Below, in pieces: positions 4,243 through 38,143 of a DNA stretch of 64,000 bases (positions within the stretch are counted from its first letter, which is position 1; the number at the start of each line of letters is the position of its first letter). The notes below the pieces were generated by a model, which worked only from the letters and a program-made list of their open reading frames with translations, was not told the origin of the DNA and did not search any database. The position numbers and the translations under genes were made by a program. The DNA is from an uncultured Gammaproteobacteria bacterium (GTDB taxonomy: Bacteria > Pseudomonadota > Gammaproteobacteria > JAAEPA01), in NCBI GenBank assembly GCA_963731655.1, contig CAVSWL010000005.1, forward strand, positions 282,926-346,925. Direction: 5' to 3'.

Positions 4243-4260
4243 CATTGAGAAATATCAATG
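4243..4260. promoter_or_regulatory. palindrome CATTGAGAAATATCAATG (family A site)
   Basis: 18-bp inverted repeat with core TTGA-N6-TCAA, 212 bp upstream of the STAS gene start. Confidence 0.45.
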
Positions 4261-4512
4261 ATTTTAGTTTGCTGTTTCGTCATATTTGGATTTACCCAAT
4301 TGTTGCATAACTTCGTGGTCCTGGGCGTCAGTTACCGAAAACTTTCTGCGGACTTGTAGGATGGGCTGAGCTTAGCGAAGCGCATCTGTCGCGATCGATG
4401 CGGTTCGTGTTACTCACCACATTCTAATGGTAATTTTCCCATGTAGCTTAACCTCACTGGGAGTGAACTTAAGCCACACGCCGTTTTGTAGCGAAAATAC
4501 CGCATTTAATAG

Positions 4513-4791
4513 ACCCAAAACGATTCAGAGCAGATACTTTATGCAACTGGCAGGTTTACTGACAGCGAAGGCTCTGAAGCGTACAACCAACGACTGTCCG
4601 AACGGCGTGCGAATGCGGTCCGCGAGGCATTGCTACAGCGGGGAATCAATGCGGATCGGATTCGGTTGCGAGGCTATGGTGAAGCCTATCCCGTCGCCAC
4701 CAACGACACGCCAGCCGGTCGAGCGCAAAACCGTCGAGTTGAAATCATCGTTTCTGATCGTGATGGAGAGATACCGCAACGTGCTTCCTGA
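4513..4791 (+). pseudogene. OmpA-family C-terminal (peptidoglycan-binding) domain fragment
   Basis: Frame reads ...TGRFTDSEGSEAYNQRLSERRANAVREALLQRGINADRIRLRGYGEAYPVATNDTPAGRAQNRRVEIIVSD. It opens just after a TAG, has no start codon, and no N-terminal barrel. Confidence 0.55.
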
Positions 4792-5324
4792 ACATCTCCC
4801 CTTATATTAATAACAAGTCATAACAAGTCATGATTTGTTTACGCGATCTAGCTAACGCCTCGAAGTCATTTGAAACTCCCTCCGATGGCATTGTACGGTA
4901 TAAAAAAATCGGCTCGAAATGGTTAACTCGCGTGAATACTGCGCTTTAGTCCGGACTTGTACGCTACGCTTCCTTAAGTTTTCCACAAGTCCGGCCTTAC
5001 TCACAGTAGAGCGTTTAAAACTTTTAACCCGCTTCTCTCGCCCTTTTCCTGATTCTCACTTTGTCTTCCAGCCCGATGGAGCGAGTCGAGCCGTTCCAAA
5101 TCGCCTAAGATTCGAAGCTTCTTTCTTCGTCAAGAACACCGCTTGCTTTATACGTAAGATGAAGATTCGCAAGACTACCGGTGAATTCGCGGTCGTGCCG
5201 AATTCATTCTCGTTGAAAATTCCAGTTAACATTGCGACGAATCGAAACCACCGTCGTGTGGCTGGGTATGAATCGATTGGCTACAGATCCATGAAACGAT
5301 AAAAAGCCAAACACAAGGGCCGCG

Positions 5325-8027
5325 TCAGCTTCGATTGTTCGGCGTCGCTTGGTCCTGCAGCGCACGCAGGTGAGTTTGTATGGCTTCCGTGATTCGTGTT
5401 GCCGCATCCTCTCCTTGTCCCTGCTCGGCGAGCCGGCGAGAATCGATCGCCGTACCGAAACGCACTCTGAGGCGGCACAGGCGTGGAAAGAGACGCCCGG
5501 GGGGCATCGCCTCGTGACTGCCGTGGATGGATACTGCGACCACCGGCGCGGGAAAACGATCCAGAAGCCTACCGATGCCCGGGCGAAACGGCTGCAGCTC
5601 GCCACTCTCAGAGCGTTGGCCCTCGGGGAACCAGATCAGTCCGCGGTTTTGCTTGAGGACCGAAGCGGTCAGCGCTAGGCTGCTGCGCACGCCAGCCTGT
5701 GGATCGATCGGCAGTACCTGTGCCGCTCGGCTGACGAAGCGACTCAGTGGGTTGCTGAATGCCACCCCTGTCCATCCGCCCCAGTACAAGCTATGCAGCC
5801 GCGCCAAGGACAGCGCTGCCGCTACCGCGAAGGGGTCCAGATAACTGGCATGGTTGCAGGCAATCACTACCGGCCCCTGCATGGGCATCCGGTCGCGGTC
5901 TTGCACCTGCAAGCGGAACAGTCCCCGTAAGGCCAACCAGTTAATAGCATACAGGGTGTTGGCGACGGCCCGCAGAAGCGGGCCGCGGGCTTGCAGCCAG
6001 TGGCGGTGAGCGGCATCGAGAGCGTCCTCGGGATCATCAAGCGGGTCGGTGATCAGTTTGTCCTGTGCCGCGGAACTCACCAACTCGCGCAGTAGATCAC
6101 GCACGGTCTCGATGCCGCCGATGGCTTCCTCGTCGAGTTCCATGCCGGTACGCCGACCCAATTCCATGGTCAGATTAAGCCATGCCAGGGAATCCACGCC
6201 CAGTTCGCTCTGCAGGCGAGTGTCGGGCGTGAGTCCCCGTTTCGGATAGCGCTGTGCCAGCCAATCCCAGGTGTGGCGGGCTGCGGCGTGTTCCATCAAA
6301 CTGCGGTCTTCGGCGGACATCTCTTCGATGTCCAGCGGTGCAAGCTGTTGCGGTTCGCCGCCCTCGGCGCGGGCGCGCTCGTAACGCTCCTCAAGCTCAT
6401 GCCGCTTGATTTTGCCGAGTCGAGTGCGCGGCAGTGGGTTGCGCGTCGGCGTGGCATCGACGAGCCGCTGATAGGAAGGCAACTTGCGGGCGATCTCGCC
6501 AATCGTGCCTCGAATGCGCCGTTGAGAATCCTCGGAAACACCGCCGGTAGGCACCACAAGCGCCACTAGTTGCCCGTTATGCTGCAAAATGCCGATCTCC
6601 GCAATGGCTTCGTGGCCCGCATAGCGCGCTTCCAGATCGTCAGGCTGAATGTTTTCGCCCCCATCGGTCACGATCAGCGTCGATACCCGGCCGGTAATAT
6701 GCAGATAACCGTCATCGTCCAGCAAGCCGAGATCACCGGTGCGAAACCAGCCGTCGTGCGTAAACGTTTCCTCGGTCTTTCGTGGTTGATTTCGGTAGCC
6801 GGCGAATACATTCGGCCCACGGGCCTGGATTTCGCCTTCGTTGCTGCGCGATTCCTGCGCCGGCGGCGCGGCTTGCCGGTCGATGCGCAGTTCCACGCCA
6901 GGGGGCGGCCGACCCGCGCTACCCAGTCGCGTTCCGCCGGGTGAGTCGAGCGTCAGCAATGGCGCGGTCTCGGTCAGGCCGTAGCCCACCGCCACCTGCC
7001 AGCCCAGTGCTTCGAGGTTCAAGGCCAGCTGCTTGTCCAGCGCGGACCCGCCGCAGGCGAGCATTCGCAATTGCCTGCCTGTCTTGCGGTGCAGCGGATA
7101 CAGCAAGACCTTACCGATATGCCAACCGGTGCGGCGGCGCACGGAGCGGCTCAGTCGAAACAGGCCCCGGAAGAAAGTACGCCCGAGGAAACCGGCATTT
7201 TCAGCTTGCACGGTGATGCCTTCGAACAGGGCTGCATAGAACCGTGGCACGCCGATGATGACGCTCGCCGAGCCGTCGCGAACCGCCCGCATCACCTGCG
7301 GACCGGTCAGGGCGTGAGGAAGGATCAGGGTCAGTCCCATCAGTATTGGCGCCAACATGCCGATCACGAACGGATAGACATGGTGCAGCGGCAGGGGCAA
7401 CAGGATACGGTCGCCCTCATGGACTACGCCGGCCGCGCCTAAAGTGTCCAGTTGAAATTCCAGGTTACGGTGCGTCAGCGGCACCCCTTTAGGCGGCCCG
7501 GTGGTGCCCGAGGTATAAAACAACGCCGCGGTGGCGTCGGCCCGGTTATCAGGCAGCGTTGCGGCACTATCGGTCAGCGCACGCCAGCCTGGCATGCTGT
7601 CAGCTGTACTATCCAGAAGCATGAGCTGGGCTTGCGGCGCGGCTGCGTGCACGCGCTCGCGCTGCGCGGCGTTGGTGAACACCCAGCGAGCATCGCTGTT
7701 GTGCAGTATCCGTTGCAGTGTATCGTCGGCAAGCTGGACGTCGAGAGGTGTGACGACGGCGCCGGAGCGCAGTACGGCGAGCGCGGCGATGATCCATTCC
7801 GGCCGGTCGGCGCCGATCAGAACCACGCTTTCTCCGGGCTGGGTTCGCTCCCTTATGCCACGTGCTAGTGCCTGCACCTGTTCGCCGACACTGTGATAGG
7901 GCCATTGTTGCGTTTCCTTCTCCGTGTATGCTTGAAACAGGGGTTGCTCCCCTCGCTGGTCGAGTCCATCGATCAATTTGTCGAGTCGGGAGCGTGAGGT
8001 TGTTGCACTGGTGTTCGTTCGGCCCAT
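5325..8027 (-). CDS. tri-domain acyl-CoA/AMP ligase - acyl carrier domain - 1-acylglycerol-3-phosphate acyltransferase (Aas-like lipid re-acylation enzyme)
   Basis: 900 aa. AMP-binding motif FYTSGTTGPPKGV, phosphopantetheine attachment motif LGVDSLAWLNL, and PlsC motifs CNHASYLDP (HX4D) and FPEGQRS. Confidence 0.85.
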   Translation of the reverse strand: MGRTNTSATTSRSRLDKLIDGLDQRGEQPLFQAYTEKETQQWPYHSVGEQVQALARGIRERTQPGESVVLIGADRPEWIIAALAVLRSGAVVTPLDVQLADDTLQRILHNSDARWVFTNAAQRERVHAAAPQAQLMLLDSTADSMPGWRALTDSAATLPDNRADATAALFYTSGTTGPPKGVPLTHRNLEFQLDTLGAAGVVHEGDRILLPLPLHHVYPFVIGMLAPILMGLTLILPHALTGPQVMRAVRDGSASVIIGVPRFYAALFEGITVQAENAGFLGRTFFRGLFRLSRSVRRRTGWHIGKVLLYPLHRKTGRQLRMLACGGSALDKQLALNLEALGWQVAVGYGLTETAPLLTLDSPGGTRLGSAGRPPPGVELRIDRQAAPPAQESRSNEGEIQARGPNVFAGYRNQPRKTEETFTHDGWFRTGDLGLLDDDGYLHITGRVSTLIVTDGGENIQPDDLEARYAGHEAIAEIGILQHNGQLVALVVPTGGVSEDSQRRIRGTIGEIARKLPSYQRLVDATPTRNPLPRTRLGKIKRHELEERYERARAEGGEPQQLAPLDIEEMSAEDRSLMEHAAARHTWDWLAQRYPKRGLTPDTRLQSELGVDSLAWLNLTMELGRRTGMELDEEAIGGIETVRDLLRELVSSAAQDKLITDPLDDPEDALDAAHRHWLQARGPLLRAVANTLYAINWLALRGLFRLQVQDRDRMPMQGPVVIACNHASYLDPFAVAAALSLARLHSLYWGGWTGVAFSNPLSRFVSRAAQVLPIDPQAGVRSSLALTASVLKQNRGLIWFPEGQRSESGELQPFRPGIGRLLDRFPAPVVAVSIHGSHEAMPPGRLFPRLCRLRVRFGTAIDSRRLAEQGQGEDAATRITEAIQTHLRALQDQATPNNRS

Positions 8028-8173
8028 GGAGTTTTGTTCCGCCGTGACGGGAGTGAGATCAGTACAGCTGTACCGCGCACGAAAAGTACCTTACGTTTCT
8101 ATCGACCATCTTGCCCGGAGAAGCCTGAAAAGGACATGATGCAGCCGACGCCGGGGCTCCGGTGCCGGTGTTG

Positions 8174-8380
8174 TCATCCCCCCATGTTCTGCGCTACGAA
8201 GTGCCGGTTAACCCGGTGCCAAAATGCCTCGATGTATTGAGCGTGGGCATTGCGGTCGTCGATAGAGTAGGCATGTTCCCATACCTCACAGCTTAGCAAC
8301 GGCCGCTTGTCATCGGCCATCGGGTTGTCCGGCTGGGCTTCGTGCCGAGTTTCCCATGCCGCTGTCGGACATTGTCGCAT
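8174..8380 (-). pseudogene. Fe/Mn superoxide dismutase C-terminal fragment
   Basis: ...AQPDNPMADDKRPLLSCEVWEHAYSIDDRNAHAQYIEAFWHRVNRHFVAQN aligns to the C-terminus of sodB at 14569-15153 (DVWEHAYYIDYRN...YIEAFWN). The N-terminal three-quarters are absent. Confidence 0.65.
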
Positions 8381-8454
8381 TTGTCCAATTACCCTCTATC
8401 GAGGCTAATATGCCTCTGATATAACTTCAAAATAACTTCCAATCGCGCGGGTAG

Positions 8455-8472
8455 CATTGAAATAAATCAATG
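8455..8472. promoter_or_regulatory. palindrome CATTGAAATAAATCAATG (family A site)
   Basis: 75 bp upstream of the sod fragment. Confidence 0.45.
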
Positions 8473-9041
8473 CACCAGTCATGGGAAAACGGTTAGCTGT
8501 ACACGTTTACCTATGATTGAGGTTTGAATGAATGAGTGAAGGGGTGGGATAGGACAACGGTGTAGGCCGCAAGACCTTACCGGATGCATCTGCAGTCTCT
8601 GGACGATGAAGAAGGCGAGTGAAATAGATTTAATTTGACGACCAATTGTGGACCGTGCGTTGTCTTGTCGTGCATACCGGCAGCTGCTTGCTGGGCAAGG
8701 AAGTGCTGATTTCCCCATAGCCGATGACGAAGGTAGACCTGGAGATTACACGCCATCAACTCAGCGGGGTCACCATGAACCGAACGGCGTGCTAGGAAGC
8801 CAGTAATCAGTCGCCTGTCGATTTCCATTGTTTGCGGTTTTTCACCGCATTTTCCCAGTGTTCAATGCATTCTAATCCGCAAAAGTAGAGGATGGAATCA
8901 GCGTTCTCGGGTGTCATGGCGGCGTCGCGGGAAATCTCCCTGCGGCGGATATGACATTTCAAGAGAATCTCCTAAAAACAGGTGCTTATCTATCCTCCAT
9001 TCACCAGCCGCTGATGGAAACAAGGAGCAAAACAAGGCGCA

Positions 9042-9799
9042 ATGAAAACTTCGTTGAAAGTAAACTTGACCCACCGCTGCATCTATTTCATCCGGCGTCT
9101 GACCCATAAAATCGGACCTTCGGAAATGGCTGTGCTCATATCTCTGGCGCTGATCATGGGTGGCGTTTGGCTGTTTGCCGAGATCGCCGATGAAGTCATA
9201 GCACAGGAAAAGATCGGTTTCGATCAGCGGATCCTTTCGATGCTGCGACCGCCTGGCCCACCGTGGCAGCCGGTCGGTCCCGCGTGGCTCGTGCAAATCG
9301 CCAGGGATATCACCGCGCTCGGCGGGCTTACCTTATTGACCTTGCTTAGCGCGCTGGTCTCCATTTATTTCGGGCTGAAACGAAGATTCAGTTTGATGAT
9401 ACTGACGCTTTCGACGCAGATCGGCGGGGTGGCGGCCAGCCATGCGCTCAAGATTTACTGCGGACGAGCCCGTCCGGATATCGAGCAACTCGTAACGGTG
9501 TCGACTTTAAGCTTTCCCAGCGGCCATGCCATGATGTCCGCCGTAGTTTATCTCACCTTGGGTGCCTTGCTGGCACGTGCTGAAGACAAAAACGATTCAA
9601 GATCTTCTTTTTAGGCACGGCACTGCTACTGACCTTGCTGGTGGGAATAAGCCGAGTCTATCTGGGAGTTCACTTCCCAACCGATGTGCTGGCCGGCTGG
9701 ATCGTGGGCGCCGTATGGGCCATGATTTGCCTGGGCGCTGCCACCCTCATCAGCCGGCGGTACGATTCGTCCCGTCGGGCTGTGGAATCCGACGCTTGA
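9042..9799 (+). pseudogene. PAP2-family phosphatase (undecaprenyl-diphosphatase/PgpB-like), frameshifted
   Basis: Frame 1 (9042-9614) has KxxxxxxRP and PSGH motifs and stops after ...ARAEDKNDSRSSF. A second frame from ~9590 continues with ...FFLGTALLLTLLVGISRVYLGVHFPTDVLAGW (the third PAP2 motif SRxxxxxHxxxD) to 9799. The shift maps to the A5 run at 9588-9592. Confidence 0.6.
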
Positions 9800-9931
9800 C
9801 CGCCGCCCTGACCAAACCGGTCGTGAGGAGTATCGGGTGCCGGTCTGTCTGTATAACCCTGCCGATCCCTGCAATTCTCAAATGGTGCATTCTATGGCGG
9901 ATGCTGCTCTAGGGGCGTTCTCGGTCCTCTA

Positions 9932-10189
9932 TTGCAAATGACCGCTATGCGAAATCTTCCTTCGGCAGGGTTGAATTTTATCCTGGTGTGCAAGCCCGAT
10001 TCCCACAAGACGTTATCGGAATGGGTGGGGGGACTGACAGTCACCGGTGATGTGCAAACGCTCGAGCTCAACCGTCGACAAGGCAAATACCACTCTATCG
10101 ATACCTACCGCTTCGTCAATCAGGTGCCTTTACGCGATCGCGAAGCGACCCTCGAGGTCAACGGAAGCGAGCTATTCACCATCCGCTAG
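9932..10189 (+). CDS. hypothetical ORF, possibly an N-terminal fragment of a DDE transposase
   Basis: 85-aa ORF at the edge of the low-GC island. MRNLPSAGLNFILV weakly resembles IS4/IS1380 transposase N-termini. Confidence 0.25.
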   Translation: MQMTAMRNLPSAGLNFILVCKPDSHKTLSEWVGGLTVTGDVQTLELNRRQGKYHSIDTYRFVNQVPLRDREATLEVNGSELFTIR

Positions 10190-10374
10190 GAAAACCACCA
10201 CCTCTTTCTCGTTCAGTTGGCTTATGCAAACTGATGCCGGTTATCATTCCACGGTAGCAACCGCACTTCCTGCCACGGACCGCAAAGGAAAAGGAAGCAG
10301 AAGGAGGCCCAAATTATGCCCGGCAATATGGGCAGGTATCGAGCTATTGATGCACCAGAAACCCACGTAGTTAA

Positions 10375-11325
10375 TTGTTAATTATGAAAATTTTTAAAAC
10401 TTACTGGCAAATCATCGAAGATACTTTCACAAAGTTCTCAAACGACGCCTTGTTGACTCGATCGGCGGCACTGTCCTACTACACTATTTTTTCACTGCCA
10501 CCCATGCTGCTTATCATCCTGCAGATTGCTACCCAGTTTTACGGTGAAGAAAGGATTAAGAAGGCCTTGTTCGGGGAAATTGGCGATCTCGTGGGTCGGG
10601 AAGGCGCTATGCAACTACTTGAGACGATCAACAAACTGGATATTTTCGAACCAGCATTGTGGGCTACTATCGTTGGCATCGGGGCGATGATTTTCACCTC
10701 GACTACGGTTTTTATCACCATGCAGGATTCCTTGAACACAATATTCGAGGTGAAATCAGCTATGAAAACCAAAGGCTTTGGCCTCCTGAAAATGTTGCGG
10801 GACAGGGTGGTGTCCTTTGCGCTTTTGGTCAGTATGGCCTTTATCCTGTTGGTGTCATTAACGATAGACACCATTATTTCGAGCTTGGGCAACTACATAG
10901 AACAACAAATTGGAGACATCTCCTGGATCATGATTATCTTAACTTCCATCATTGTCCCACTTGCCATCGTAACGCTGTTGTTTGCCCTGATTTTCAAATT
11001 TCTCCCAGATGCCAAGCTAGCCTGGAAAGACATCTGGTTTGGAGCGCTGGTCACTGCGCTTTTGTTTTCGCTAGACAAATACCTGATTGGTTTTTATATC
11101 GGCAAAAGCGAAAATGCCAACCTCTATGATGCGGCGGGGAGTATCCTGGTCATCATGATCTGGGCCTATTATGCTTCGGCCATTTTCCTTTTTGGAGGCA
11201 CGTTTACCTATGTTCGAGCAAAAAACCTGAATGGAGATGTACATCCTGAAGACTATGCTATGAGGGTCAAAAACGTAGAAGTGAAAATAGAAAAAGGAAT
11301 GGATGTAGAAGTTACTACTGGCTAA
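10375..11325 (+). CDS. YihY/BrkB (virulence factor BrkB) family inner-membrane protein
   Basis: 316 aa, six predicted TM segments and the family-typical layout. AT-rich codon usage unlike the flanking DNA. Confidence 0.8.
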   Translation: MLIMKIFKTYWQIIEDTFTKFSNDALLTRSAALSYYTIFSLPPMLLIILQIATQFYGEERIKKALFGEIGDLVGREGAMQLLETINKLDIFEPALWATIVGIGAMIFTSTTVFITMQDSLNTIFEVKSAMKTKGFGLLKMLRDRVVSFALLVSMAFILLVSLTIDTIISSLGNYIEQQIGDISWIMIILTSIIVPLAIVTLLFALIFKFLPDAKLAWKDIWFGALVTALLFSLDKYLIGFYIGKSENANLYDAAGSILVIMIWAYYASAIFLFGGTFTYVRAKNLNGDVHPEDYAMRVKNVEVKIEKGMDVEVTTG

Positions 11326-11829
11326 ATTTATAGAGAAACGTCATTAAATGTCATTGGTCAATGAAGTCATTGGGGTATCAGTCTTCAATGCGATTTTTAT
11401 AAAATTTATCGTTACGCACTGACCTGAAATTGAAATTGATATTTCCATATTAATTGTCGATTGATTTATTCAAGAACCATGATCGCTAGGCAATTGAATA
11501 AGAGGAGACAAATCTAATCTGGTATGCTTACTGTATTGTTAAACAATCGATTACACCTTGTTTCCTCCTGTCATGTATGTCTTGGCAGTGTTATTGCTCT
11601 CTCTTAGACAACCAATCTTCAATTGATCTATATTCTACTTACTCCATACGAGACCAAAAAGACTTGAAAAGATAAAACGCATTCTCACTATAGAAAATTA
11701 GCCAAGTCTCGTGCCAATGATTCTACTGCGCAGAATTTGCATTAATTGAGCCCAATAACATTGGGTAATGGACTAAAATTTGCTGCGTTCATATTGATTG
11801 TTAAAGCCATAGACTATTAGGATCCAATC

Positions 11830-12018
11830 ATGACTCAACTTAAAATACAGACTGTAACTTTAATGCTCTTAGGCCTAATAACTTTAAATGGTTGCGGGTT
11901 TATGGCTGGTGCGGCCGTTGGAGGAACAGCTGCGTATGAAGCTAAAGATAAAGGTTATGAAGTCCAATCACCGATTAAAAAAGAGGAAGCGGATGACAAC
12001 AAGAGTGATACACACTAA
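11830..12018 (+). CDS. small lipoprotein (62 aa)
   Basis: Signal peptide with a lipobox-like LITLNGC, then a Gly/Ala-rich mature region. Confidence 0.45.
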   Translation: MTQLKIQTVTLMLLGLITLNGCGFMAGAAVGGTAAYEAKDKGYEVQSPIKKEEADDNKSDTH

Positions 12019-12273
12019 CTGTCAAATAGCCTTAAAGAGCAACATTGAGGTTGTTTTCAGTTGGACTTAATTGGATTTCCATCGATAACAAGATTTGGTT
12101 AAGCTTTTTGATAAGTTATGACTTATTCCACTCTAAGAATACAACATAGAATCCATAGTAACACAAGCGCTTAGAGTATTTAATCGCTATGGGTCTAATT
12201 CCCCGCATCTTGCTGCGTGTCAAACGATGCGTTGCAAGGGAAATCTATGATTTTCGAGCAACTCATCTCAATA

Positions 12274-12306
12274 CCCCGCTGCAAGCAGCGGGGTAGTTTA
12301 TTCATC
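12274..12306 (+). terminator. Rho-independent terminator-like hairpin
   Basis: Perfect 9-bp stem CCCCGCTGC aa GCAGCGGGG followed by TAGTTTATTCATC. Confidence 0.4.
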
Positions 12307-12673
12307 TAGGAAGAAAGTAAGTCACATACATTGAAGCTAAATGAAAGAATAAGTTGATCTCACCCTGCTTTCACTACTTCATTTACAAAACGTAACTTTT
12401 CTACTACTTGAGAAGATAAAACAAATGGGTAGGTATCTCCTTGTCACATACTGCGATTGAGCTCATTAAACATCACGGATAAGCGCATCCATTCGGTTAC
12501 CTCATCGTCGAATTATCTGGTTTCTTACTCTGTTTTGATTTATCTAAAATCCAAAGCGCACCGCAATCTCGAACCGTTTCTAAAGTATCGTTCATATGAA
12601 GATAGTGCGCCCAGATTTCTGCCCAGTCTTCCCAAGGATGAGAACTAGCATAAGACGATATAAAACGTTCATT

Positions 12674-12909
12674 CTAGTTTGCAACAGGATCTTCGGTGTA
12701 GTACCGCTCCAGTGCATAGGCATAGTCACCACGTTTGTCCCCGAAATGCAAACGAAAAACGGAAAACGGAAAGTTTTTTTTCTATCGCGTATGAGTCGAT
12801 CCCAATAATAATGGCCTGATTCGTGACGCATGTGTCCAAGCAAAGTGCGATATTGTTCGTTCATACGTTCCCGCGTGCGCACGCGTTTTACGGGGTCCGC
12901 TTCAATCAC
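12674..12909 (-). pseudogene. small HExxH (zinc-metallopeptidase-like) protein, frameshifted at an A8/T8 tract
   Basis: Frame A: VIEADPVKRVRTRERMNEQYRTLLGHMRHESGHYYWDRLIRDRKK.... After the A8 run (plus-strand T8 at 12774-12781) the protein-like sequence continues in another frame: ...NFPFSVFRLHFGDKRGDYAYALERYYTEDPVAN*. A single-A insertion would restore one ~77-aa ORF. Confidence 0.4.
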
Positions 12910-13301
12910 ATTAAAAATACTGAACTCTAACTCGCAAGTACTTCTATACTATTGTAAATTTTATAAGTAATTGCAAATACTACAAACACAAGACTAACTT
13001 GCTTATTCGCTATACCTTTAGGTATGCGTAAAAATAGATGTTGCTCTATGAATCAGTTGCTGTTATCACGGTTTAATGTATTTATATTAACTAAGTGTTC
13101 TCAGATAGGATTGAGTCAATCGATAAGTTAAGAGTACTGTTTTAGTTGTTATAGCAAAGCTGGTTGATACACTACTACTCAACTTATCCAATACTGTCAA
13201 TTACATTATTTATACTTCATATGGCATCGTTTAGAACAAATTTACGCATCACAAAAATCGAATGTTTTCAGATCATTGCGATGCGCAATGTCGGAATTGT
13301 T

Positions 13302-13466
13302 CTATATGATTGGTCGTCGCCCAGTCACAAAGAATACGATTGCCAAAATTAAACCCACGATAAATAGGATCCAAGCAATATTAGTAGCCGTACCCGCGAT
13401 TCCAGATAAACCAAATACCGCTGCAATGATAGCAATGATTAAAAATATAACAGCCCAATTAAACAT
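13302..13466 (-). CDS. UPF0391/DUF1328 family small membrane protein
   Basis: [54 protein letters not shown] with a strong AAGGAGAGG SD 7 nt upstream; the track ORF starts 7 codons earlier. Confidence 0.75.
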
Positions 13467-13761
13467 AACACCTCTCCTTCGAATCACTTTGTCTAATAAT
13501 CATATGTACAAATGCACTTCGTATTCAATCGTAGCAGTGATTAATCATCGAAATCTACTTGATTGAATCATCGTTTATATTCAATCGTCGTGCCATTGTT
13601 TAAATAAGCCGGCTTATAATGCACTCAATATATCAAGGCAATAGTAAATAATACAGATAGGAAAACAAATATATCTTTTGATGATTTAGACTCTCACATA
13701 ATTATTTCTAATGAATATAAATTATTTTTTGCTCATGCTTAAATACTCTTTATTGTTTGTG

Positions 13762-14330
13762 TTAAAGTTTAAAGCAAATAACGTTGTAGATAGAAAGCAA
13801 ATAAAAAATAAAATAATGTGTCTTGAGTCCAACGCTACCACCTCTCGAAGGCTTCAAGGTTCTCGGGCTTGACCTGAATGCCGTCGCCGTGGGCCTGTAT
13901 GCACGGCGTGCTACTTTCCGGTCGACGAACCAATTCCACCGACCGGGTGTCAGCACCGGCGGAAAATCCCTATAGCGGTGGCTGGCGAAGTGGGGACGGC
14001 GGGCTAGAAATTCCAGCAGAATGGTCGTGCCCGAGCAGGCCAGACCAGCGATGTCGATAGGCTTGACGATAGGTATACTCGCGTCCATGCGCACCGGATT
14101 CACGTATTTCCACCCCATTTTCTTGTCCGGTATGACTTCCAGAATACGACCACCATCCGATTCGGTGATCAGCGTGTTGCCGGTTGGGCTGGCGTTGCCG
14201 CGCAGTTCGGGCCACGCCTGGCCGCGAAGCGACTTCGATTTCCCCGGTTATGTAGGCACTACGGAACGGAGAGTCGATACCACCGCGCTCATTCCCGACT
14301 TCTTCTCACACTACCCTCGCGTAAACGACT
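13762..14330 (-). pseudogene. arylsulfotransferase-like beta-propeller protein remnant (frameshifted, degraded)
   Basis: Two frames give ...EEVGNERGGIDSPFRSAYITGEIEV and ...GNASPTGNTLITESDGGRILEVIPDKKMGWKYVNPV.... The NGNTLI...DGGRI.EV motif suggests an ASST/PQQ-like propeller repeat. Stops and low-complexity tail. Confidence 0.3.
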
Positions 14331-14568
14331 GAAGCCTTCGACGTTGAAAGGGGCGAACTGACAGGTTAGCCGCGAATCCACTTCTTTGGTTCTCAAGGCG
14401 AGAATCTCGATCGTCGAGCTCGTGAACGGTGGTAGACTGCCCGTCCGCTGGAGGTAGTACCCAAGCAGATTTATGGAGGAACAATCACCATGTGGTAGAC
14501 CTTTAGGCTGAGAGTGACGAATTTGCGCGAGTCATGTCCTCGCATCCATAGATATCTGTCCGGCGGTG

Positions 14569-15153
14569 TTATTTACTCAGGTTTTGCGTTACGAAATTCC
14601 AATTAACGAGGTTCCAGAATGCCTCGATATACTTTGGCCGCACGTTGCGGTAATCGATGTAATAGGCGTGTTCCCAAACGTCGCATGTTAACAATGGTTG
14701 TTTCCCCTCGGTCATTGGGTTGTCCGCGTTGCTAGTGTTTACGATCTCTAGCGCCCCGGCGGAATCCTTTACCAGCCAAGTCCAACCGGAACCGAAGTTG
14801 GTGGCGGCCGACTTGGAGAAGTGGTCTTTAAATTCCGCGAAATTGCCAAACGAGGTTTCAATAGCCTGCGCCAGCTCTCCCGAGGGTTCGCCGCCACCTT
14901 CAGGCTCCATGCAGTACCAATAGAACGTGTGATTCCAGACTTGTGCGCCATTGTTAAAAATTCCGCCGGAGGCATTCCGGATGATTTCTTCGAGTGATGC
15001 CGTCTCGAATTCAGTGTTCGGGATCAGCTCATTCAATTTGTTTACGTAGGTGGCATGATGTTTTCCGTGGTGATAATCGAGTGTTTCGGCCGAGATATGG
15101 GGTTCAAGAGCGTTGTTGGGATAGGGAAGTTCGGGGAGTGTATGTTGTGTCAT
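14569..15153 (-). CDS. sodB: iron superoxide dismutase
   Basis: 194 aa from MTQHTLPELPY... with GAGGAGG SD. Fe-SOD signatures AQVWNHTFYW and DVWEHAYYIDY. Confidence 0.9.
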   Translation of the reverse strand: MTQHTLPELPYPNNALEPHISAETLDYHHGKHHATYVNKLNELIPNTEFETASLEEIIRNASGGIFNNGAQVWNHTFYWYCMEPEGGGEPSGELAQAIETSFGNFAEFKDHFSKSAATNFGSGWTWLVKDSAGALEIVNTSNADNPMTEGKQPLLTCDVWEHAYYIDYRNVRPKYIEAFWNLVNWNFVTQNLSK

Positions 15154-15385
15154 GGTGACCTCCTCAGGGGGGCATAGTGACAACCTTTGTTTGTCATGAA
15201 ACCGAAAACCGGGGTGCCGTGGGCGAACCTCACGGTATTAACATGCCTGTTGGAATGCTGATCGTTTTTTCATCCGCTTGGATACTCGGCTCATTTCGGC
15301 CGTTACTATGGAAGCAGCCAGCATTTCCTTGCCTAGCAACATGTGCTCAGCTTTCGCTATTTTTTTACAAGGTGTGGAGTGCTTT

Positions 15386-15403
15386 CATTGAAAAATTTCA
15401 ATG
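15386..15403. promoter_or_regulatory. palindrome CATTGAAAAATTTCAATG (family A site, near-perfect)
   Basis: 233 bp upstream of the sodB start. Confidence 0.5.
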
Positions 15404-15962
15404 AGACTCAGACACGCTTCCACCAACATTAAAAAAAGATTTTGCGAGGATTCGGAGCTCAGGGGGTAGTTGCCTGATTGGGCATGGCTTTGAGGCACGG
15501 CGAGTGCAAATGAAAGAGTGATTAATAGTGCTAACGTCAGGAAGCCGATCTCCAGGAGCCTGCCGGAACCGGAGGACGACGGCGATGCCGTGGCTCGGAT
15601 GTAGTTTTTCATGGCTTGCTTCTCTTTTTTGCGGTGTAAACACACAGATCAAGTTGGGTGCCACGGGCCTTAGCCACTGAAATAGATAACGGAGCGAATC
15701 CCATTATTATCGACAGCAGGTTGTTGCGTCTCGGCGACAGAGAATCAGAGTGTATCTACCAGAATCGGGATCTCGACCGGTCCCCACGTCCCTGGCGCCA
15801 CCTGGTAGAACATCTGCACTGCTGGCTGCTTTTGTCGTGAGAAAGAAGGCATTGAGTGATACTGTAGTCGAACCTCCACTCGGTTGGCGAGGTGGCTAAT
15901 CAGGGGGGGTAATATGGTGAGAATTTCCACTGGAAACCGATCGGGACAAGTGTACTTTGCTT

Positions 15963-16586: not shown

Positions 16587-17030
16587 TAGGAGTACAGCAG
16601 AAGACATGCTTCGGTTCTATCTGCGTGCTGGCTAACAGCGCCATGGCGGAGCAGTGACGAAAGTCGTCTCCAGCGGGCATAAAAACGGAGCACCGTTTAG
16701 CGGGTTGGCGCTGGGAATGCGTCAATCCTCGGCGACCACCTGAGCCATGCTGTGGATGTGCCCATAAAACGGGTAACAAACGACCAACGTTTTTTCATTC
16801 CCGACCCCGATAAGTGTTCGGAAAGTCAACGCCGCTGTTGCAGTTTGGCCCGGGGGCAGCGCTGCGACGATTATGTTCGCGTAACGTCCGTTGGACATTA
16901 CGATTTCGCAATGCGGTCAGTATTACCGTGGAATACGTGAAGACTCAGCACTGGGTTCGTTTGCCAGTTGTTCTAGCACTTTGGCACCTGTCGGGGAAGG
17001 CACGAGACCACCCGCAACGGGTGTCGGCAG

Positions 17031-18553: not shown

Positions 18554-18571
18554 CATTAAAAAATATCAATG
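18554..18571. promoter_or_regulatory. palindrome CATTAAAAAATATCAATG (family A site)
   Basis: 79 bp upstream of the likely start of the RND adaptor gene. Confidence 0.45.
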
Positions 18572-18649
18572 CGCCGGATTTGCAAAGCGGGTAAGAATAA
18601 TATTAAAGATTATTTCGGGTGGCGCGTTCCGGGCGGTGACGTAAGTCTT

Positions 18650-19774: not shown

Positions 19775-19830
19775 TCGGTGGGCATCGGACTGGACATACA
19801 GCGTTTCGAGCCACCTCGGCGACTTTAGCC

Positions 19831-22800
19831 ATGAACGTAATTACCGATCTTTTTATCCGCCGCCCCGTACTCGCGATTGTAGTCAATCTGCTTATCGTGA
19901 TCGCAGGCCTTCAAGCCTGGCGTTTGCTCAGTATCCGGCAATACCCCCGCAGCGAAAATGCCACGGTCAACATAACGACGGTCTACGTCGGCGCGAGTGC
20001 GGAGCTGGTGCGCGGCTTCATCACCACGCCCCTCGAGCAGGCCATCGCGTCGTCCGATGGCATCGACTACATCGAGTCGAAAAGCCTACAGGGATTCTCG
20101 GTGATCAACGCCCGTCTGAAGCTAAACTATGAACCGACCAAGGCGTTGGCTGATATTACGGCCAAAGTGGATCAGGTTCGCAACGATCTGCCGCCGGAGG
20201 CCGAGCTGCCATCGATCACGGTGCAATCCGCGGATTCACAGTTTGCGTCGGCGTATATCAGTTTTGCGTCCGACGTGCTTTCGCAGGCGGAAATCACCGA
20301 CTATCTCACACGCGTTGTACAACCGCGGCTGGCGTCGGTCGCCGGCGTGCAGCGCGCGGACATTCTCGGTGCGCGCACTTTCGCGATGCGCATTTGGCTC
20401 AAGCCTGACAAAATGGCGGCGTTGCATATCAGCCCGGCCCAGGTGCGCCAGGCGCTCGCCGATAACAATTTTCTTGCAGCGGTCGGAAGCACCAAGGGCT
20501 CGCTGGTTCAGGTCAGGCTGACCGCCAATACCGATCTCCACTCGATGAAGGATTTTAAGCATCTGGTTATTTACCAGCGTAACGATACCCTCGTGCGCCT
20601 CGGCGATATTGCAGACGTCGTTCTTGGCGCGGAGGACTATGACACTACGGTGCGTTATTCCGGTCAGACGGCGGTATTCATGGGCATATTTCCGCTACCG
20701 GATGCCAATACGATCGATACCATCCGACGGGTCACGGCAGAACTCGATGCGGTCAAGCGCGACCTGCCCGCGGGCCTCGAAGTGAGCGTCGGCTATGATG
20801 CATCGCAATACATCGCCAATGCGATCCGCGAGGTTACTAAGACCCTGGCCGACACATTGCTAATCGTCATTATCGTGATCTTTCTGTTTCTGGGCTCGAT
20901 GCGTTCCGCGCTGGTGCCGATGGCCGCGATCCCAGTTTCGCTCATCGGCGGCATCTTTCTCATGCAGGTATTCGGCTTTACACTCAACCTGCTCACGCTA
21001 CTCGCGATCGTGCTATCGGTCGGTCTGGTGGTCGACGACGCCATCGTGGTTGTCGAAAATATCGAACGTCATCTGCGCGAGGGGCTTAGCAAACGCGAAG
21101 CGGCGTTGATCGGCGCGCGCGAGTTGGTAGGGCCCGTCATCGCCATGACCATTACGTTGGTGGCGGTATATACGCCGATTGCGCTGCAGGGCGGCCTTAC
21201 CGGCGCACTGTTCCGTGAGTTCGCGCTTACGTTGGCCGGAACCGTGGCCATTTCGGGCCTGGTTGCGCTTACGCTGTCTCCGATGATGTCGGCCTACCTG
21301 CTGCGCAGCGCCGACATAGAGAAGGGCGGCTTTCCCCGCTGGATAAATCACCACTTTGACCGGCTACGTCTATCTTATGGCCATGCGGTCGGTGGCACGC
21401 TGAAATTGCGACCCTATATCTATGCGATCTGGATCTTGGTATCCCTGGCGGCGTTTCCGCTGTACAAACTATCGCCGAAAGAGCTTGCGCCCAGCGAAGA
21501 TCAGAGTGTGCTGTTCGGCCTGATCACCGCGCCGGCCAATGCTACCGCCGACCAGAAGGCCTATTTCGGCCGTGCCGCGGAGCGTGTCTTCCTCAGCACG
21601 CCCGAAGAAGAGCTCACGTTTCAGATCCTGTTCCCGCCTTCGACAGCCGCGATGTACGACACCGACGGATTTTCCGGAATGGTGGTCAAACCCTGGCACG
21701 ATCCCCGCCAGCGGACCGTGTTCGAGATCCTGCCTGAGGTGCAGGCCAAGCTCTCACGGATCCCCGGCTTCCAAATGTTTGTCACTACGCCGCCGGCGCT
21801 GCCTGGCGGCAGCAACTTTCCGGTGGAGTTCATTATCGCTTCGACCGCCGACGCCGAGCGACTGCTCGAGTTTGCTAAAAAGATACAGACGAAGGCGACG
21901 CAAAGCGGCATATTCTTTTTCCCGCCCCAGATTGATCTGAAATACGATCAGCCGCAAGCCGAGGTGGTAATCGATCGCGACACAGTGGGTATACTGGGTC
22001 TGGATCTGAACCAGGTTGGCAGCGATCTCGCCGCGGCTTTGGGTGGCGATTTTGTCAATCGTTTCAATATGTCTGGCCGCAGCTACAAGGTCATTCCGCA
22101 AATCGAGCGTACCGGACGTCTCAATCCGGAGCAGCTCACCAACCTCTACATCAACGGTCCGCAGGAGCAACTCATTCCGTTGAGCACCGTGGCGCATATC
22201 GAGACCAAAACGGTTCCGCGCTCGCTCAACCGCTTCCAGCAATTGAACTCCGTCAAACTCTCGGGCATGACCAATCGTACGCTGGATCAAGCGCTTAGGG
22301 TGTTGGAGGACGCGGCGCACGCGATTCTGCCGCCGGGTTACTCGATCGATTACACCGGCGAATCGCGCCAGCTCCGCCAGGAAGGCAACAAATTTCTGCC
22401 CGCGTTTGTGCTGGCCATCCTGATGATCTTTCTCGCGCTCGCGGTGCAATTCAATTCGTTTCGTGACCCCTGCATCATCCTGTTCGGATCGGTGCCGCTG
22501 GCGATGTTCGGTGCGTTGTTGTTCACCTTTCTGAAGATGCCCAACCCCAATATCCCTTTCTGGACAAACGGCTGGACCACGACGCTCAATATCTACGCAC
22601 AAGTCGGCCTCGTCACTCTAGTAGGCCTTATCTCAAAGAACGGCATTCTCATCGTCCAGTTCGCTAACAAGCTCCAGAAGCAGGGCAGGACCAAGGTCGA
22701 CGCGATCCACGAAGCCGCCATGACGCGCCTGCGGCCGATATTAATGACGACCGTAGCGACCGTAGCCGGCCATTTTCCGCTGACGCTGGTCACCGGTGCG

Positions 22801-22977
22801 GGCGCGGCGGCGCGTAACTCGATCGGCCTCGTGCTCGTGGGCGGGATGACCATCGGCACGCTGTTCACGCTGTTTGTGCTACCTTCAATCTATATCCTGC
22901 TTGCAAAGGATCACCACGTGGACAAACGCGTATCCAGGTCGAGCACAAAATTTTCGATGGCGCACGACCCCTCATAA
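19831..22977 (+). CDS. RND efflux transporter permease (AcrB/MexB family)
   Basis: 1048 aa, 12-TM hydrophobe/amphiphile efflux architecture. Begins MNVITDLFIRRPVLAIVVNLLIV... Confidence 0.9.
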   Translation: MNVITDLFIRRPVLAIVVNLLIVIAGLQAWRLLSIRQYPRSENATVNITTVYVGASAELVRGFITTPLEQAIASSDGIDYIESKSLQGFSVINARLKLNYEPTKALADITAKVDQVRNDLPPEAELPSITVQSADSQFASAYISFASDVLSQAEITDYLTRVVQPRLASVAGVQRADILGARTFAMRIWLKPDKMAALHISPAQVRQALADNNFLAAVGSTKGSLVQVRLTANTDLHSMKDFKHLVIYQRNDTLVRLGDIADVVLGAEDYDTTVRYSGQTAVFMGIFPLPDANTIDTIRRVTAELDAVKRDLPAGLEVSVGYDASQYIANAIREVTKTLADTLLIVIIVIFLFLGSMRSALVPMAAIPVSLIGGIFLMQVFGFTLNLLTLLAIVLSVGLVVDDAIVVVENIERHLREGLSKREAALIGARELVGPVIAMTITLVAVYTPIALQGGLTGALFREFALTLAGTVAISGLVALTLSPMMSAYLLRSADIEKGGFPRWINHHFDRLRLSYGHAVGGTLKLRPYIYAIWILVSLAAFPLYKLSPKELAPSEDQSVLFGLITAPANATADQKAYFGRAAERVFLSTPEEELTFQILFPPSTAAMYDTDGFSGMVVKPWHDPRQRTVFEILPEVQAKLSRIPGFQMFVTTPPALPGGSNFPVEFIIASTADAERLLEFAKKIQTKATQSGIFFFPPQIDLKYDQPQAEVVIDRDTVGILGLDLNQVGSDLAAALGGDFVNRFNMSGRSYKVIPQIERTGRLNPEQLTNLYINGPQEQLIPLSTVAHIETKTVPRSLNRFQQLNSVKLSGMTNRTLDQALRVLEDAAHAILPPGYSIDYTGESRQLRQEGNKFLPAFVLAILMIFLALAVQFNSFRDPCIILFGSVPLAMFGALLFTFLKMPNPNIPFWTNGWTTTLNIYAQVGLVTLVGLISKNGILIVQFANKLQKQGRTKVDAIHEAAMTRLRPILMTTVATVAGHFPLTLVTGAGAAARNSIGLVLVGGMTIGTLFTLFVLPSIYILLAKDHHVDKRVSRSSTKFSMAHDPS

Positions 22978-23217: not shown

Positions 23218-24411
23218 TCAGGGTCTAATGGAACGGTAGTCCAGGTGTTCGCCTCGCCGCGACAACACGATCTGCCACAGCTGTGTCTGTCCACTGCGGA
23301 AGCTGGCGGCGCAGGCGTGCAAATAATATTTCCACATACGGTAAAAGCTTTGGCTGTACCGAGCGCGCAAAGACGGCCAAGCGCGGTTGAAGTTATCCCA
23401 CCAGGCCATCAGCGTACGGTCGTAGTCGGCACCGAACTCGTGCCAGTCACGGATCACGAGGTCCGGTTCGATGGCTGCGGCAAGCTGTTTTGCCGACGGC
23501 AGCGCGCCGTTGGGGAAAATATACTTGTCGATCCAAGGATCAATTCCACCGCTGCTGGTGCTGTTGCCAATCGTATGTAACAGAAAAAGGCCATCGTCTT
23601 GCAGCAGCCGGCCTATGATATTGAAGAATACCTGGTAGTTTTTCTGACCCACGTGTTCGAACATGCCCACCGAGACAATTTTGTCGAAGCGGCCCTGCAG
23701 GTCGCGGTAGTCCATAAGTTCGAGAGTAACCGGCAGGCCGGCACAGCGTTCACGTCCCAATGCCACTTGCTGGCGTGACACAGTGATACCGAAGACTTCC
23801 ACCGCGTAGTGCTCGGCGGCATAGCGCGCCAAACCGCCCCAGCCGCAGCCTATATCGAGTAGGCGCTCACCGGGTTTGAGTTCCAGTTTGCGGCAGATCA
23901 TGTCCAGCTTGTCATATTGCGCCTGCTCGAGATTGTGTGCATGCGCCCAGTAGCCACAGCTATAGCTTAACGTGGGATCCAGCATAGCCTGGAATACATC
24001 GTTGCCGATATCATAGTGCTGCTCTCCAACTCTGAAAGCGCGACGCTTTGACTGGCGGTTCAACAACTGTATCGAGGCGTCCTTAATAGCTACGTTGAGT
24101 CGCAGGCGGAAGCGCCGCAGCGCGTAGAGCTTTTCGTCGATATTGGCGCGCAGCAAGATAGTGAACATCGTATCGAGCTGCTGGCAATCCCAGAGGCCAT
24201 CCATATATGCTTCACCGAAACCCAGGGAACCGCGTGTCACGATTCGTCGGTACGTATCTGCGTCGTGCACCTTAATATCTTCAGGATTGCTGCCATTGAA
24301 GCGCAACCCCGTCCCTTTCATCAGCTTAGTCAGCAGCCGAGGCGGTGATGCGCTGCGATGGTCATGGTGTCGGTCGCCGGTGTTTACATTTGAACCGATA
24401 GCATCAGACAT
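23218..24411 (-). CDS. cfa: cyclopropane-fatty-acyl-phospholipid synthase
   Basis: Collinear with E. coli Cfa. SAM-binding LDIGCGWGGLA, FEHVG and the C-terminal YYLxxCAxxF motif. Start at MSDAIGSN. Confidence 0.85.
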   Translation of the reverse strand: MSDAIGSNVNTGDRHHDHRSASPPRLLTKLMKGTGLRFNGSNPEDIKVHDADTYRRIVTRGSLGFGEAYMDGLWDCQQLDTMFTILLRANIDEKLYALRRFRLRLNVAIKDASIQLLNRQSKRRAFRVGEQHYDIGNDVFQAMLDPTLSYSCGYWAHAHNLEQAQYDKLDMICRKLELKPGERLLDIGCGWGGLARYAAEHYAVEVFGITVSRQQVALGRERCAGLPVTLELMDYRDLQGRFDKIVSVGMFEHVGQKNYQVFFNIIGRLLQDDGLFLLHTIGNSTSSGGIDPWIDKYIFPNGALPSAKQLAAAIEPDLVIRDWHEFGADYDRTLMAWWDNFNRAWPSLRARYSQSFYRMWKYYLHACAASFRSGQTQLWQIVLSRRGEHLDYRSIRP

Positions 24412-24515: not shown

Positions 24516-24533
24516 CATTAAAAAATCTCAATG
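24516..24533. promoter_or_regulatory. palindrome CATTAAAAAATCTCAATG (family A site)
   Basis: 105 bp upstream of the cfa start. Confidence 0.45.
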
Positions 24534-30196: not shown

Positions 30197-30802
30197 AATC
30201 TTGCTTTAACTTTTTTAATCAACAGCTTGCGCGATTACACACAATAACTTGGGACATAAGACAAGGAGTCTTTGGCGCAAAGGGAGGGATATAACACGAC
30301 CAGGTCTGAAATTGTCCTTGAGCCTCTTTAAGAAGTCCTAGGTAGCTATCCGCACTCGCTATAAAAGCCACATTTGCTACAGTAATAGCAGCCGCCAAGG
30401 TCTCGAAAAAGATTGGCTCCCAGTATTCGGGCTTCCGTTCGTGTCGGGCCAAAGCGTGGGCTACGCAGTGACGCACTGCGTTAGCATCGAGTTTCTCCGG
30501 GGTGGCGCACTTCTACCGCAGAATAGAGAGGCATATCGGTTGAGGATTCATTGGATTGATGCGCTCACAGTTACTTTGGAAATGGCCGGTTCCGATATTC
30601 CCGTTAGAGACGGCATATCGAACAAAAGTAGGGAAAACTACACAGATGCCATTGCGGGACGGAATATCACTGTTCATCTTATTTGCGCTCTACTGGAATG
30701 GGTGAAGCTTGTTTTAAGATCTTGCCAGCGGAATAATCCAGGATTTCAAGGAGGGTGCCCCGTTCGAAAGTCTGACCGCCGCGGTCGAGTCGCCAGCTGT
30801 CC

Positions 30803-31267
30803 TCATCGGTCAGACAGTGGTCTATTCGGGTCGCTGAGCACACTCAGGACGACAGCCCCAAACGCAAGCAGAGTCAAGACGGCGGCTGATGCATGGGCGT
30901 ATTCCCATTGGGTTCGGAGTGCTTCCCAATTCTCTGGCACGCGCGTCCAGTTTTCCGTCGCCTGATTCGCGGGAAAGGTCCAAATGAAGAAAATCACTAG
31001 CGTTGCTGCCATGAAAAGAAATGCCGCGGTGGCCCAACCAAACGCCGCGCGCCGCCCTCGCATTACGATCGCGAGACTGAGATTGGACATAATAGCGCCT
31101 ACCAGGACAATGCCGAAGAACGCCCAGCCGCGATAAATGTCCTGCACGGTGAAATAAGCCTCCTGTGGTAGATCGATTTTGTTTGGAAGTACAGCAAGGT
31201 GGGCGCCAGCGGGAACCAGCGCCAGGGCTGTCAAAACGAGCGCCAGGAATTGTATTGTGCGTATCAT
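30803..31267 (-). CDS. small integral membrane protein (DUF1772-like, 4 TM)
   Basis: Start set at MIRTIQFLALV with an AGGCAGG SD. Four hydrophobic helices of ~154 aa total. Confidence 0.45.
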   Translation of the reverse strand: MIRTIQFLALVLTALALVPAGAHLAVLPNKIDLPQEAYFTVQDIYRGWAFFGIVLVGAIMSNLSLAIVMRGRRAAFGWATAAFLFMAATLVIFFIWTFPANQATENWTRVPENWEALRTQWEYAHASAAVLTLLAFGAVVLSVLSDPNRPLSDR

Positions 31268-31386
31268 GCTACCTGCCTTGGGTAAGGGAGAACCAGGATT
31301 TAATGGCTGGGGTATGTTCATAACGGAGTCGCCGTAGGGTAATACGAAAGGCTGTTCAACACTCAATCACACGGCTGGCTGCATGT

Positions 31387-31404
31387 CATTGCGTTTTTTC
31401 AATG
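31387..31404. promoter_or_regulatory. palindrome CATTGCGTTTTTTCAATG (family A site)
   Basis: In the divergent intergenic region, ~115 bp from both the membrane-protein gene and ccp. Confidence 0.45.
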
Positions 31405-38139: not shown

Positions 38140-38143
38140 GACG

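Follow-up and report, generated by a model that had tools for sequence, protein, structure and literature searches.

Operators of class II activators of the Crp/Fnr family, together with the regulons that depend on them, are a textbook kind of regulatory element. Among the described systems, the alphaproteobacterial FixK/FnrN boxes of the FixLJ-FixK cascade have a TTGA-N6-TCAA core with a flanking G, as do the boxes reported here, and the published FixK/FnrN consensus is TTGANCNNGATCAANG (PMC4999443). We analyzed a stretch of 64,000 nucleotides (hereafter, the window) from an uncultured gammaproteobacterium (assembly GCA_963731655.1, contig CAVSWL010000005.1, positions 282,926 to 346,925 of the forward strand), in which an 18-bp palindrome of the form CATTGA-N6-TCAATG, called the box below, recurs upstream of stress-type genes. 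By computation we observed the boxes and their spacing, the geometry of the associated promoters, their conservation in relatives and their co-occurrence with the gene of a Crp/Fnr-family protein. We propose, with a probability of about 0.72, that the boxes are operators of this protein, which would act as a dimeric, FixK-like activator of oxidative and general stress genes.

The comparison with FixK reveals both likenesses and differences. As with FixK, the candidate regulator is a Crp/Fnr-family protein without an Fe-S cysteine cluster, and its gene often lies beside those of a PAS histidine kinase and a FixJ-type response regulator (8 loci). Unlike in the FixK boxes, the spacer is A/T-rich, with A8 and T11 conserved rather than C..GATC. 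The host belongs to the Gammaproteobacteria, the regulon consists of stress genes and not of genes for microaerobic respiration or nitrogen fixation, and the regulator reaches 47.5-54.3 bits against the NCBIfam FixK cut-off of 300. With Escherichia coli FNR, the regulator and its boxes share the E--SR recognition helix, the TTGA half-site core and, going by what is generally known of FNR geometry, the centre at -41.5; they differ from FNR in that the regulator has neither the cysteine cluster nor an equivalent of Cys122, T7 and A12 of the box are not conserved, and the Fnr model is matched at 33.6-41.4 bits against a cut-off of 228. CRP is set apart by its half-site, which is TGTGA and not the TTGA found here, and by Arg82 and R180, the latter belonging to its recognition residues R180-E181-R185; in the regulator they are replaced by His and by Gln or Ser, respectively.

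The closest relative of solved structure is Thermus thermophilus TAP/LdrP (5i2d, 3b02), which also provides the top NCBIfam match. Both TAP/LdrP and the SdrP (2zcw) of Thermus activate transcription in the class II manner without an effector, SdrP acting on genes of stationary phase and oxidative stress; the working principle proposed for the regulator is the same. However, Thermus belongs to another phylum, the kinship is distant (53 bits), and the LdrP model yields 60-70 bits against a cut-off of 300. In terms of gene content, general knowledge suggests a comparison with the regulons of RpoS in Gammaproteobacteria and EcfG in Alphaproteobacteria, with which the box-linked set shares cfa, superoxide dismutase (SOD), BON/OsmY-like, PRC-barrel, trehalose and glycogen genes as well as neighbouring CsbD genes; in contrast to these systems, control here would run through an activator box at -41.5 instead of an alternative sigma-factor promoter. 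The literature that we searched appears to contain no description of this subfamily of regulators, of the variant box or of its stress-type regulon, nor of such a regulator associated in Gammaproteobacteria with a kinase, a response regulator and a conserved 112-aa protein (p112).

Palindromic boxes in the window

The exact palindrome occurs three times in the window (4243, 8455 and 15386), against 0.01 matches expected from shuffled sequences, and five more copies are found when one mismatch is allowed (17514, 17716, 18554, 24516 and 31387). When the distance between the half-sites was varied at up to one mismatch, N6 gave eight matches, each other spacing from 0 to 15 gave none to two, and everted arrangements gave none or one. 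The boxes conform to the inverted-repeat geometry of Crp/Fnr sites, TTGA/TGTGA-N6-TCAA/TCACA, at N6 only. A position weight matrix (PWM) trained on the eight sites, three perfect and five with one mismatch, scored them at 22.5-31.9 bits; the next site, at 16896, had 18.3 bits, after which the scores dropped to 12.2, leaving a clear gap below the genuine sites. Every copy is intergenic, outside Pfam-supported genes, and the spacer is A/T-rich in each of them. The eight intergenic copies reported in an earlier note on this DNA were all present at the positions given there, and the distances, recalculated from the edge of the box to the start codon, came to 78-232 nt for all of them but box 8455.

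The perfect boxes are CATTGAGAAATATCAATG (4243-4260; 28.6 bits), located 211 nt 5' of the gene STAS1 with a -10-like TAAACT/TATAAA 22-24 nt away on the gene side; CATTGAAATAAATCAATG (8455-8472; 27.8 bits), between a C-terminal sod fragment on the minus strand and a degraded PRC-barrel gene on the plus strand; and CATTGAAAAATTTCAATG (15386-15403; 31.9 bits), 232 nt 5' of the sodB ATG (15153). Those with one mismatch are CATTGAAATTTCGCAATG (17514-17531; 27.4 bits), 108 nt 5' of STAS2; TATTGATCAATTTCAATG (17716-17733; 22.5 bits), 83 nt 5' of p112; CATTAAAAAATATCAATG (18554-18571; 25.8 bits), 78 nt 5' of the start of the RND adaptor gene (18650); CATTAAAAAATCTCAATG (24516-24533; 25.1 bits), 104 nt 5' of the cfa start (24411), with a GATAAT hexamer at offset 20; and CATTGCGTTTTTTCAATG (31387-31404; 25.5 bits), 112 nt 5' of the ccp ATG (31517), with a GATAAT hexamer at offset 21 and a divergent membrane-protein gene on its opposite side. 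A weaker candidate, CATTACGATTTCGCAATG (16896-16913; 18.3 bits), lies 288 nt 5' of a gene for a 214-aa protein and has a CATAAT hexamer at offset 21 on the gene side.

A 9-mer, CGGTTAGCT, is common to 8490-8498 and 17751-17759, where it stands at the same offset (35 nt from the start of the box) after boxes 8455 and 17716. It may reflect common promoter ancestry or an additional shared element.

Promoter geometry

To locate the boxes relative to promoters, 38 of them from the window and from relatives were oriented to the nearest gene, and the score of a -10 PWM was averaged for each offset. One sharp peak was obtained, where the hexamer begins 21 nt beyond the end of the box (mean -0.9, compared with about -5.5 elsewhere). 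With this hexamer placed at -12 to -7, the centre of the box falls at -41.5 of the predicted promoters, which is the canonical class II position of CRP/FNR-type activators. A consensus sigma-70 scan of positions 4000-19000, covering seven of the nine boxes, detected no full -35/-10 promoter at any box, a result that fits activator-dependent promoters. Sigma-54 promoters downstream of the boxes were also considered and dropped, several GG...GC pairs being spaced one base too long.

Conservation of the boxes in relatives

The closest SodB proteins among species representatives, which do not include the genome studied here, are 76-78% identical to that of the window and come from uncultured Gammaproteobacteria, a Thiogranum metagenome-assembled genome (MAG) and an Ectothiorhodospiraceae MAG. 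Boxes were present in 4 of 80 sodB loci, and these were the four closest ones (L002-L005 in our numbering of loci). The sodB box is located exactly 82 nt upstream in L002, L003 and L004, and the same 82 nt were found in L085. Apart from the box, the region upstream of sodB in the window is unlike that of the relatives, and the distance between box and gene differs as well. Boxes also precede orthologues of ccp in L098 (27.6 bits) and L105 (15.8 bits), of STAS2 in L002 (15.7 bits, 88 nt) and L090 (17.0 bits, 145 nt), and of cfa in four further organisms (L111, L113, L114 and L115). Footprinting in relatives, which the earlier note had put forward for the sodB, cfa and ccp promoters, thus found conserved boxes at all three and at STAS2 too.

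At a score of at least 20 bits, 47 boxes were counted in 327 kb of clade loci versus 0 in 1.36 Mb of other gammaproteobacterial sodB loci. In five long loci (L106, L107, L110, L111 and L114), 19 of 22 boxes above this score were intergenic, with the remaining 3 lying inside small hypothetical open reading frames (ORFs). The consensus of 37 non-redundant boxes is CATTGA-nAwwTn-TCAATG, in which C1 is conserved at 89%, A2 at 95%, T3, T4 and G5 at 95-100%, A6 at 88%, and A8 and T11 at 84% each.

A Crp/Fnr-family candidate regulator

The same Crp/Fnr-family gene was found in all four of the box-bearing sodB loci, 2-3 kb from sodB, and in none of the 76 others. In L002 the gene occupies 12037-12792. 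The regulator has about 239 aa and consists of cNMP_binding and HTH_Crp_2 domains. A metagenome scan with this protein retrieved 24 loci at 56-88% identity, which hold 23 boxes in 158 kb. Further contexts of the regulator are likewise rich in boxes, including L106, which belongs to Methylohalobius crimeensis 10Ki (PMC4463540). The family is therefore present in a cultured organism, with WP_022948719 as its M. crimeensis member.

We aligned the protein from relatives with E. coli FNR and CRP. The recognition helix reads QESVSR, as compared to VETISR in FNR and RETVGR in CRP, and its E--SR pattern is that of FNR, which predicts a TTGA half-site. It is from this alignment that FNR's N-terminal cysteine cluster and Cys122 were seen to have no counterpart and the two CRP arginines to be replaced, and the Arg82/Ser83 combination of cAMP binding is not retained; judged from the protein sequence, the effector domain is of neither the Fe-S nor the cAMP type. 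The curated NCBIfam models LdrP, FixK, FnrL, CRP and Fnr all stay far under their cut-offs (for CRP, 35-46 bits against 266), and a PDB search returned the Thermus class II activator 5i2d/3b02 as the nearest solved structure (E ~4e-13). The combination that characterizes FixK-type systems, a Crp/Fnr protein devoid of a sensory cysteine cluster and TTGA-N6-TCAA sites that it would bind, was thus recovered here.

The regulator gene follows those of the PAS histidine kinase and a FixJ/NarL-type response regulator in eight loci (L003, L004, L084, L087, L088, L101, L106 and L110); other loci are without this pair. The response regulators of Methylohalobius and of the uncultured clade are 62% identical, and in L106 and L110 a strong box is located 370-380 nt upstream of the module formed by kinase, response regulator and regulator. 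Directly downstream of the regulator, 11 loci carry a homologue of p112 that has no box of its own (for instance L003, 12495-12824). The p112 family is conserved, with a length of about 108 aa. For p112 itself we obtained no family match and no homologues in a protein search, and its single-sequence AlphaFold model was unusable (pLDDT, the model's per-residue confidence score, 47). The protein may be a partner or modulator of the regulator. L089 and L090 have the genes in the order STAS2 (minus strand), regulator (plus strand) and p112 (plus strand). The corresponding gap between STAS2 and p112 in the window (17405-17817) measures 412 bp and contains boxes 17514 and 17716. The kinase and the response regulator that adjoin the regulator elsewhere are absent from the 64-kb window.

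Predicted regulon across the clade

Box-linked genes in relatives include the redox genes sodB, ccp and those for an AhpC-type peroxiredoxin and a ferredoxin-NADP-reductase-like oxidoreductase with FAD/NAD-binding domains, as well as cfa for membrane lipid modification. Boxes are further linked to genes for BON-domain, PRC-barrel, SpoIIAA-like and DJ-1/PfpI proteins; for CHAD, LigD_N and LonC; for trehalose synthesis, GlgC, GlgB and a GH15 enzyme; for DsrC, rhodanese, HiPIP and NnrU; and for DUF202, DUF308 and DUF4396 proteins. CsbD genes are often neighbours of box-linked genes. No respiratory or anaerobic genes were noticed among the targets in relatives. The regulon looks wider than oxidative stress and resembles a general stress or stationary-phase programme. 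The earlier note had expected an oxygen or oxidative/envelope-stress regulon; its stress character was borne out, and its scope proved too narrow once the BON, DJ-1, trehalose and glycogen genes were taken into account.

Proposed mechanism and significance

We suggest that a dimer of the regulator would bind the box at about -41.5 of promoters that possess a -10 element but no usable -35, and that the bound dimer would recruit RNA polymerase directly in the class II manner. Given that the protein has no recognisable sensory site, its activity is probably set by the amount made, and this level could be under the control of the kinase and response regulator encoded next to it, in the manner of the FixLJ-FixK cascade, with p112 as a possible partner protein. 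In the window, the regulated set would comprise sodB, ccp, cfa, the RND pump, two SpoIIAA-like proteins, p112 and the decayed PRC-barrel gene.

More tentatively, and at slightly less than even odds in our judgement, the PAS kinase, the FixJ-type response regulator, the FixK-like activator and p112 may form a dedicated module that controls an extensive programme of general stress response or dormancy, acting on dozens of boxes at -41.5 which are grouped in stress islands. Such a module would be an undescribed functional counterpart of RpoS or EcfG in sulfur- and methane-oxidising Gammaproteobacteria, including Thiogranum, Methylohalobius, relatives of Granulosicoccaceae and many uncultured lineages; its reach would extend to antioxidant enzymes, to the remodelling of membranes and to the metabolism of trehalose and glycogen. 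For many unannotated stress genes of sulfur and methane oxidisers, the boxes and the candidate regulator would provide a testable cis-code, and M. crimeensis 10Ki is a cultured organism where the prediction can be tested. The circuit would also be an instance of FixK-type regulation reused for stress protection outside the Alphaproteobacteria. For the genome studied here, the question arises as to whether the lineage, while decaying, has kept its regulon intact except for the master regulator.

Weighing of the explanations

Several observations count against the proposal that a FixK-like activator binds the boxes. The regulator is absent from the whole 64-kb window (Pfam scans of 40 ORFs, and tblastn), and tblastn found no trace of it in the gap between STAS2 and p112, which is its syntenic place; it could have been deleted there or relocated, and this genome may lack it. 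Most regulator genes have no box directly upstream, so that autoregulation is not the rule, and for sodB and STAS1 the box positions would entail long 5' leaders (~200 nt). Phylogeny confounds the co-occurrence of regulator and boxes, as does the retrieval of many of the loci via the regulator itself, and other Crp/Fnr paralogues with an E--SR helix could bind the same core. Finally, each step from the DNA to the protein, namely binding by the regulator, activation, control by the kinase and response regulator, and the signal, is one that we infer.

If the boxes were instead bound by an oxygen-sensing [4Fe-4S] FNR or ANR protein encoded elsewhere, the genes behind them would form a regulon for anaerobic or microaerobic conditions. 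FNR sites have exactly this core, TTGA-N6-TCAA, and are likewise centred at -41.5, and ccp is generally known to be under FNR or ANR in several bacteria. We nevertheless regard this as unlikely, given that the T7 and A12 of TTGAT-N4-ATCAA are not conserved and C1/A2 and A8/T11 are conserved instead, that the boxes track a cysteine-less regulator, and that the targets are stress and storage genes, with no respiratory or anaerobic ones noticed. In addition, none of the 76 other gammaproteobacterial sodB loci has a box, and many of the organisms concerned are generally known to encode FNR. It is similarly improbable that the boxes of the window are non-functional relics of a system whose regulator was lost in genome decay. 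The absence of the regulator from its syntenic position would agree with such a loss, and so would the signs of decay and mobility in the window, which are the sod and PRC-barrel fragments, an IS630-type transposase gene and a truncated-looking reverse transcriptase/maturase ORF. However, three perfect and five one-mismatch boxes with in-register -10 elements argue for continuing selection, and since the regulator occupies other contexts in relatives, for example after the kinase and response-regulator pair, it may lie outside the window.

Binding by the neighbouring FixJ/NarL-type response regulator in place of the Crp/Fnr protein is less probable still. Some NarL-family regulators, e.g., GacA/UvrY, are generally known to use a 6-N6-6 palindrome. 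The response-regulator gene adjoins the regulator in eight loci, and FixJ sites are 18-bp imperfect palindromes (PMC4999443). On the other hand, TTGA-N6-TCAA with a flanking G is the established Crp/Fnr code and fits the E--SR helix; the strict placement at -41.5 is typical of class II Crp/Fnr activators; and the box-rich loci L096, L105, L107 and L091 have the Crp/Fnr gene without an adjacent response regulator. We see hardly any room for the boxes being a dispersed repeat (repetitive extragenic palindrome, REP, or miniature inverted-repeat transposable element, MITE), an RNA hairpin or terminator, or a product of chance. A perfect inverted repeat that recurs in intergenic DNA might suggest as much; yet when the box regions were compared with each other by BLAST, similarity ended at 18 bp, except for the 9-mer shared by 8455 and 17716, and the copies are placed upstream of genes and of the predicted transcription start, so that a REP or MITE was rejected. 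Intrinsic terminators were rejected as well, as the boxes folded as RNA give weak hairpins (-0.5 to -8.4 kcal/mol) with no T tract after them, and chance is excluded by the counts, by the restriction to N6 and by the density in clade versus non-clade loci. Thus, two expectations of the earlier note were upheld: the boxes are not part of a larger dispersed repeat, and an operator of the CRP/FNR superfamily serving a stress-type regulon is favoured by the -41.5 centres, by conservation at orthologues and by a co-occurring Crp/Fnr gene whose helix predicts TTGA.

Genes behind the boxes in the window

Three predicted targets are located on the minus strand in the first part of the window: STAS1 (3645-4031), encoding a SpoIIAA-like protein of 128 aa (PF11964), behind box 4243; sodB (14569-15153), encoding an Fe/Mn superoxide dismutase, behind box 15386; and STAS2 (17031-17405), encoding a SpoIIAA-like protein of 124 aa (PF11964), behind box 17514. 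A gene for the 214-aa protein, on the same strand (15963-16607), is a possible target of box 16896, and its product has no Pfam or NCBIfam match. The gene for p112 (17817-18155, plus strand), and not a sod fragment, lies downstream of box 17716. Box 18554 is predicted to serve an RND efflux operon composed of an HlyD-family adaptor and an AcrB-family pump (18650-22977, plus strand), and box 24516 is predicted to serve cfa (23218-24411, minus strand), which encodes a cyclopropane fatty acyl phospholipid synthase of 397 aa and whose start at 24411 agrees with an identical 397-aa database entry. The predicted target of box 31387 is ccp (31517-32671, plus strand), encoding a di-haem cytochrome c peroxidase.

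The surroundings of box 8455 are degraded. The second-sod fragment (8183-8362, minus strand) corresponds to SodB residues 143-202 only, with 55% identity to SodB, and since just the C-terminal part is left, the box sits where the missing N-terminal codons would be. On the other side, a PRC-barrel gene with in-frame stops (8544-8830, plus strand, start approximate), recognised by tblastx comparison with the PRC genes in L003 and L004, starts about 72 nt downstream of the box, and PRC-barrel genes with boxes are found in L095, L096, L099, L105 and L114. The original target of box 8455 is therefore likely to have been the decayed PRC-barrel gene rather than sod, and the view that the site had travelled with the sod pseudogene is not supported, the more probable partner being on the other strand. 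The sod and PRC-barrel remnants side by side (8183-8362 and ~8544-8830) are signs of gene decay.

Next to these remnants, the window encodes a 900-aa fusion of AMP-binding, carrier and acyltransferase domains (5325-8027), 65% identical to its counterpart in M. crimeensis (L106, 295-2973). In M. crimeensis a weak box (15.4 bits) is found 92 nt upstream of this gene; its counterpart in the window is 428 nt away from the closest box (8455), with the sod fragment in between.

Other features of the window

Spacer-less palindromes had been listed in the earlier note as variants of the box. Two such 12-bp palindromes do exist, at 43497 and 11352; their geometry differs, their PWM scores are low, and nothing links them to the system. 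The one at 43497-43508, CATTGATCAATG, is perfect, has the same half-sites without the spacer and lies 71 nt after an MgtC-family gene. The one at 11352 adjoins a terminator-like hairpin (11368-11390; CATTGGGGTATCAGTCTTCAATG), which is located 3' of a BrkB-family gene (10375-11325), is followed by a T-rich tail and contains box-like half-sites at a spacing of 11. The BrkB-family gene belongs to a segment of low G+C content (10000-14000; 38-43% as compared to ~55% elsewhere), which also holds several broken ORFs with homologues in relatives and is probably inserted or decaying.

Downstream of ccp, a direct duplication of 1.56 kb with 96% identity (32692-34247 and 40559-42120) carries a gene for a metallophosphoesterase with a twin-arginine translocation (TAT) signal and a gene for a SoxA/TsdA-type cytochrome c. 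The two copies bracket KaiC and hybrid kinase genes (36619-39763). Genes of mobile elements are located at 1485-2585, 47026-49281 and 49712-50560 and encode an IS630-type DDE transposase, a large serine recombinase and a group II intron reverse transcriptase/maturase; the last of these ORFs looks truncated, its match beginning at position 79 of the RVT_1 profile. A further ORF of 991 aa (51874-54849) encodes a transaldolase domain fused to a complete transketolase, whose N, C and pyrimidine-binding domains are all present; it is unusual for these two pentose-phosphate enzymes to be joined in a single chain.

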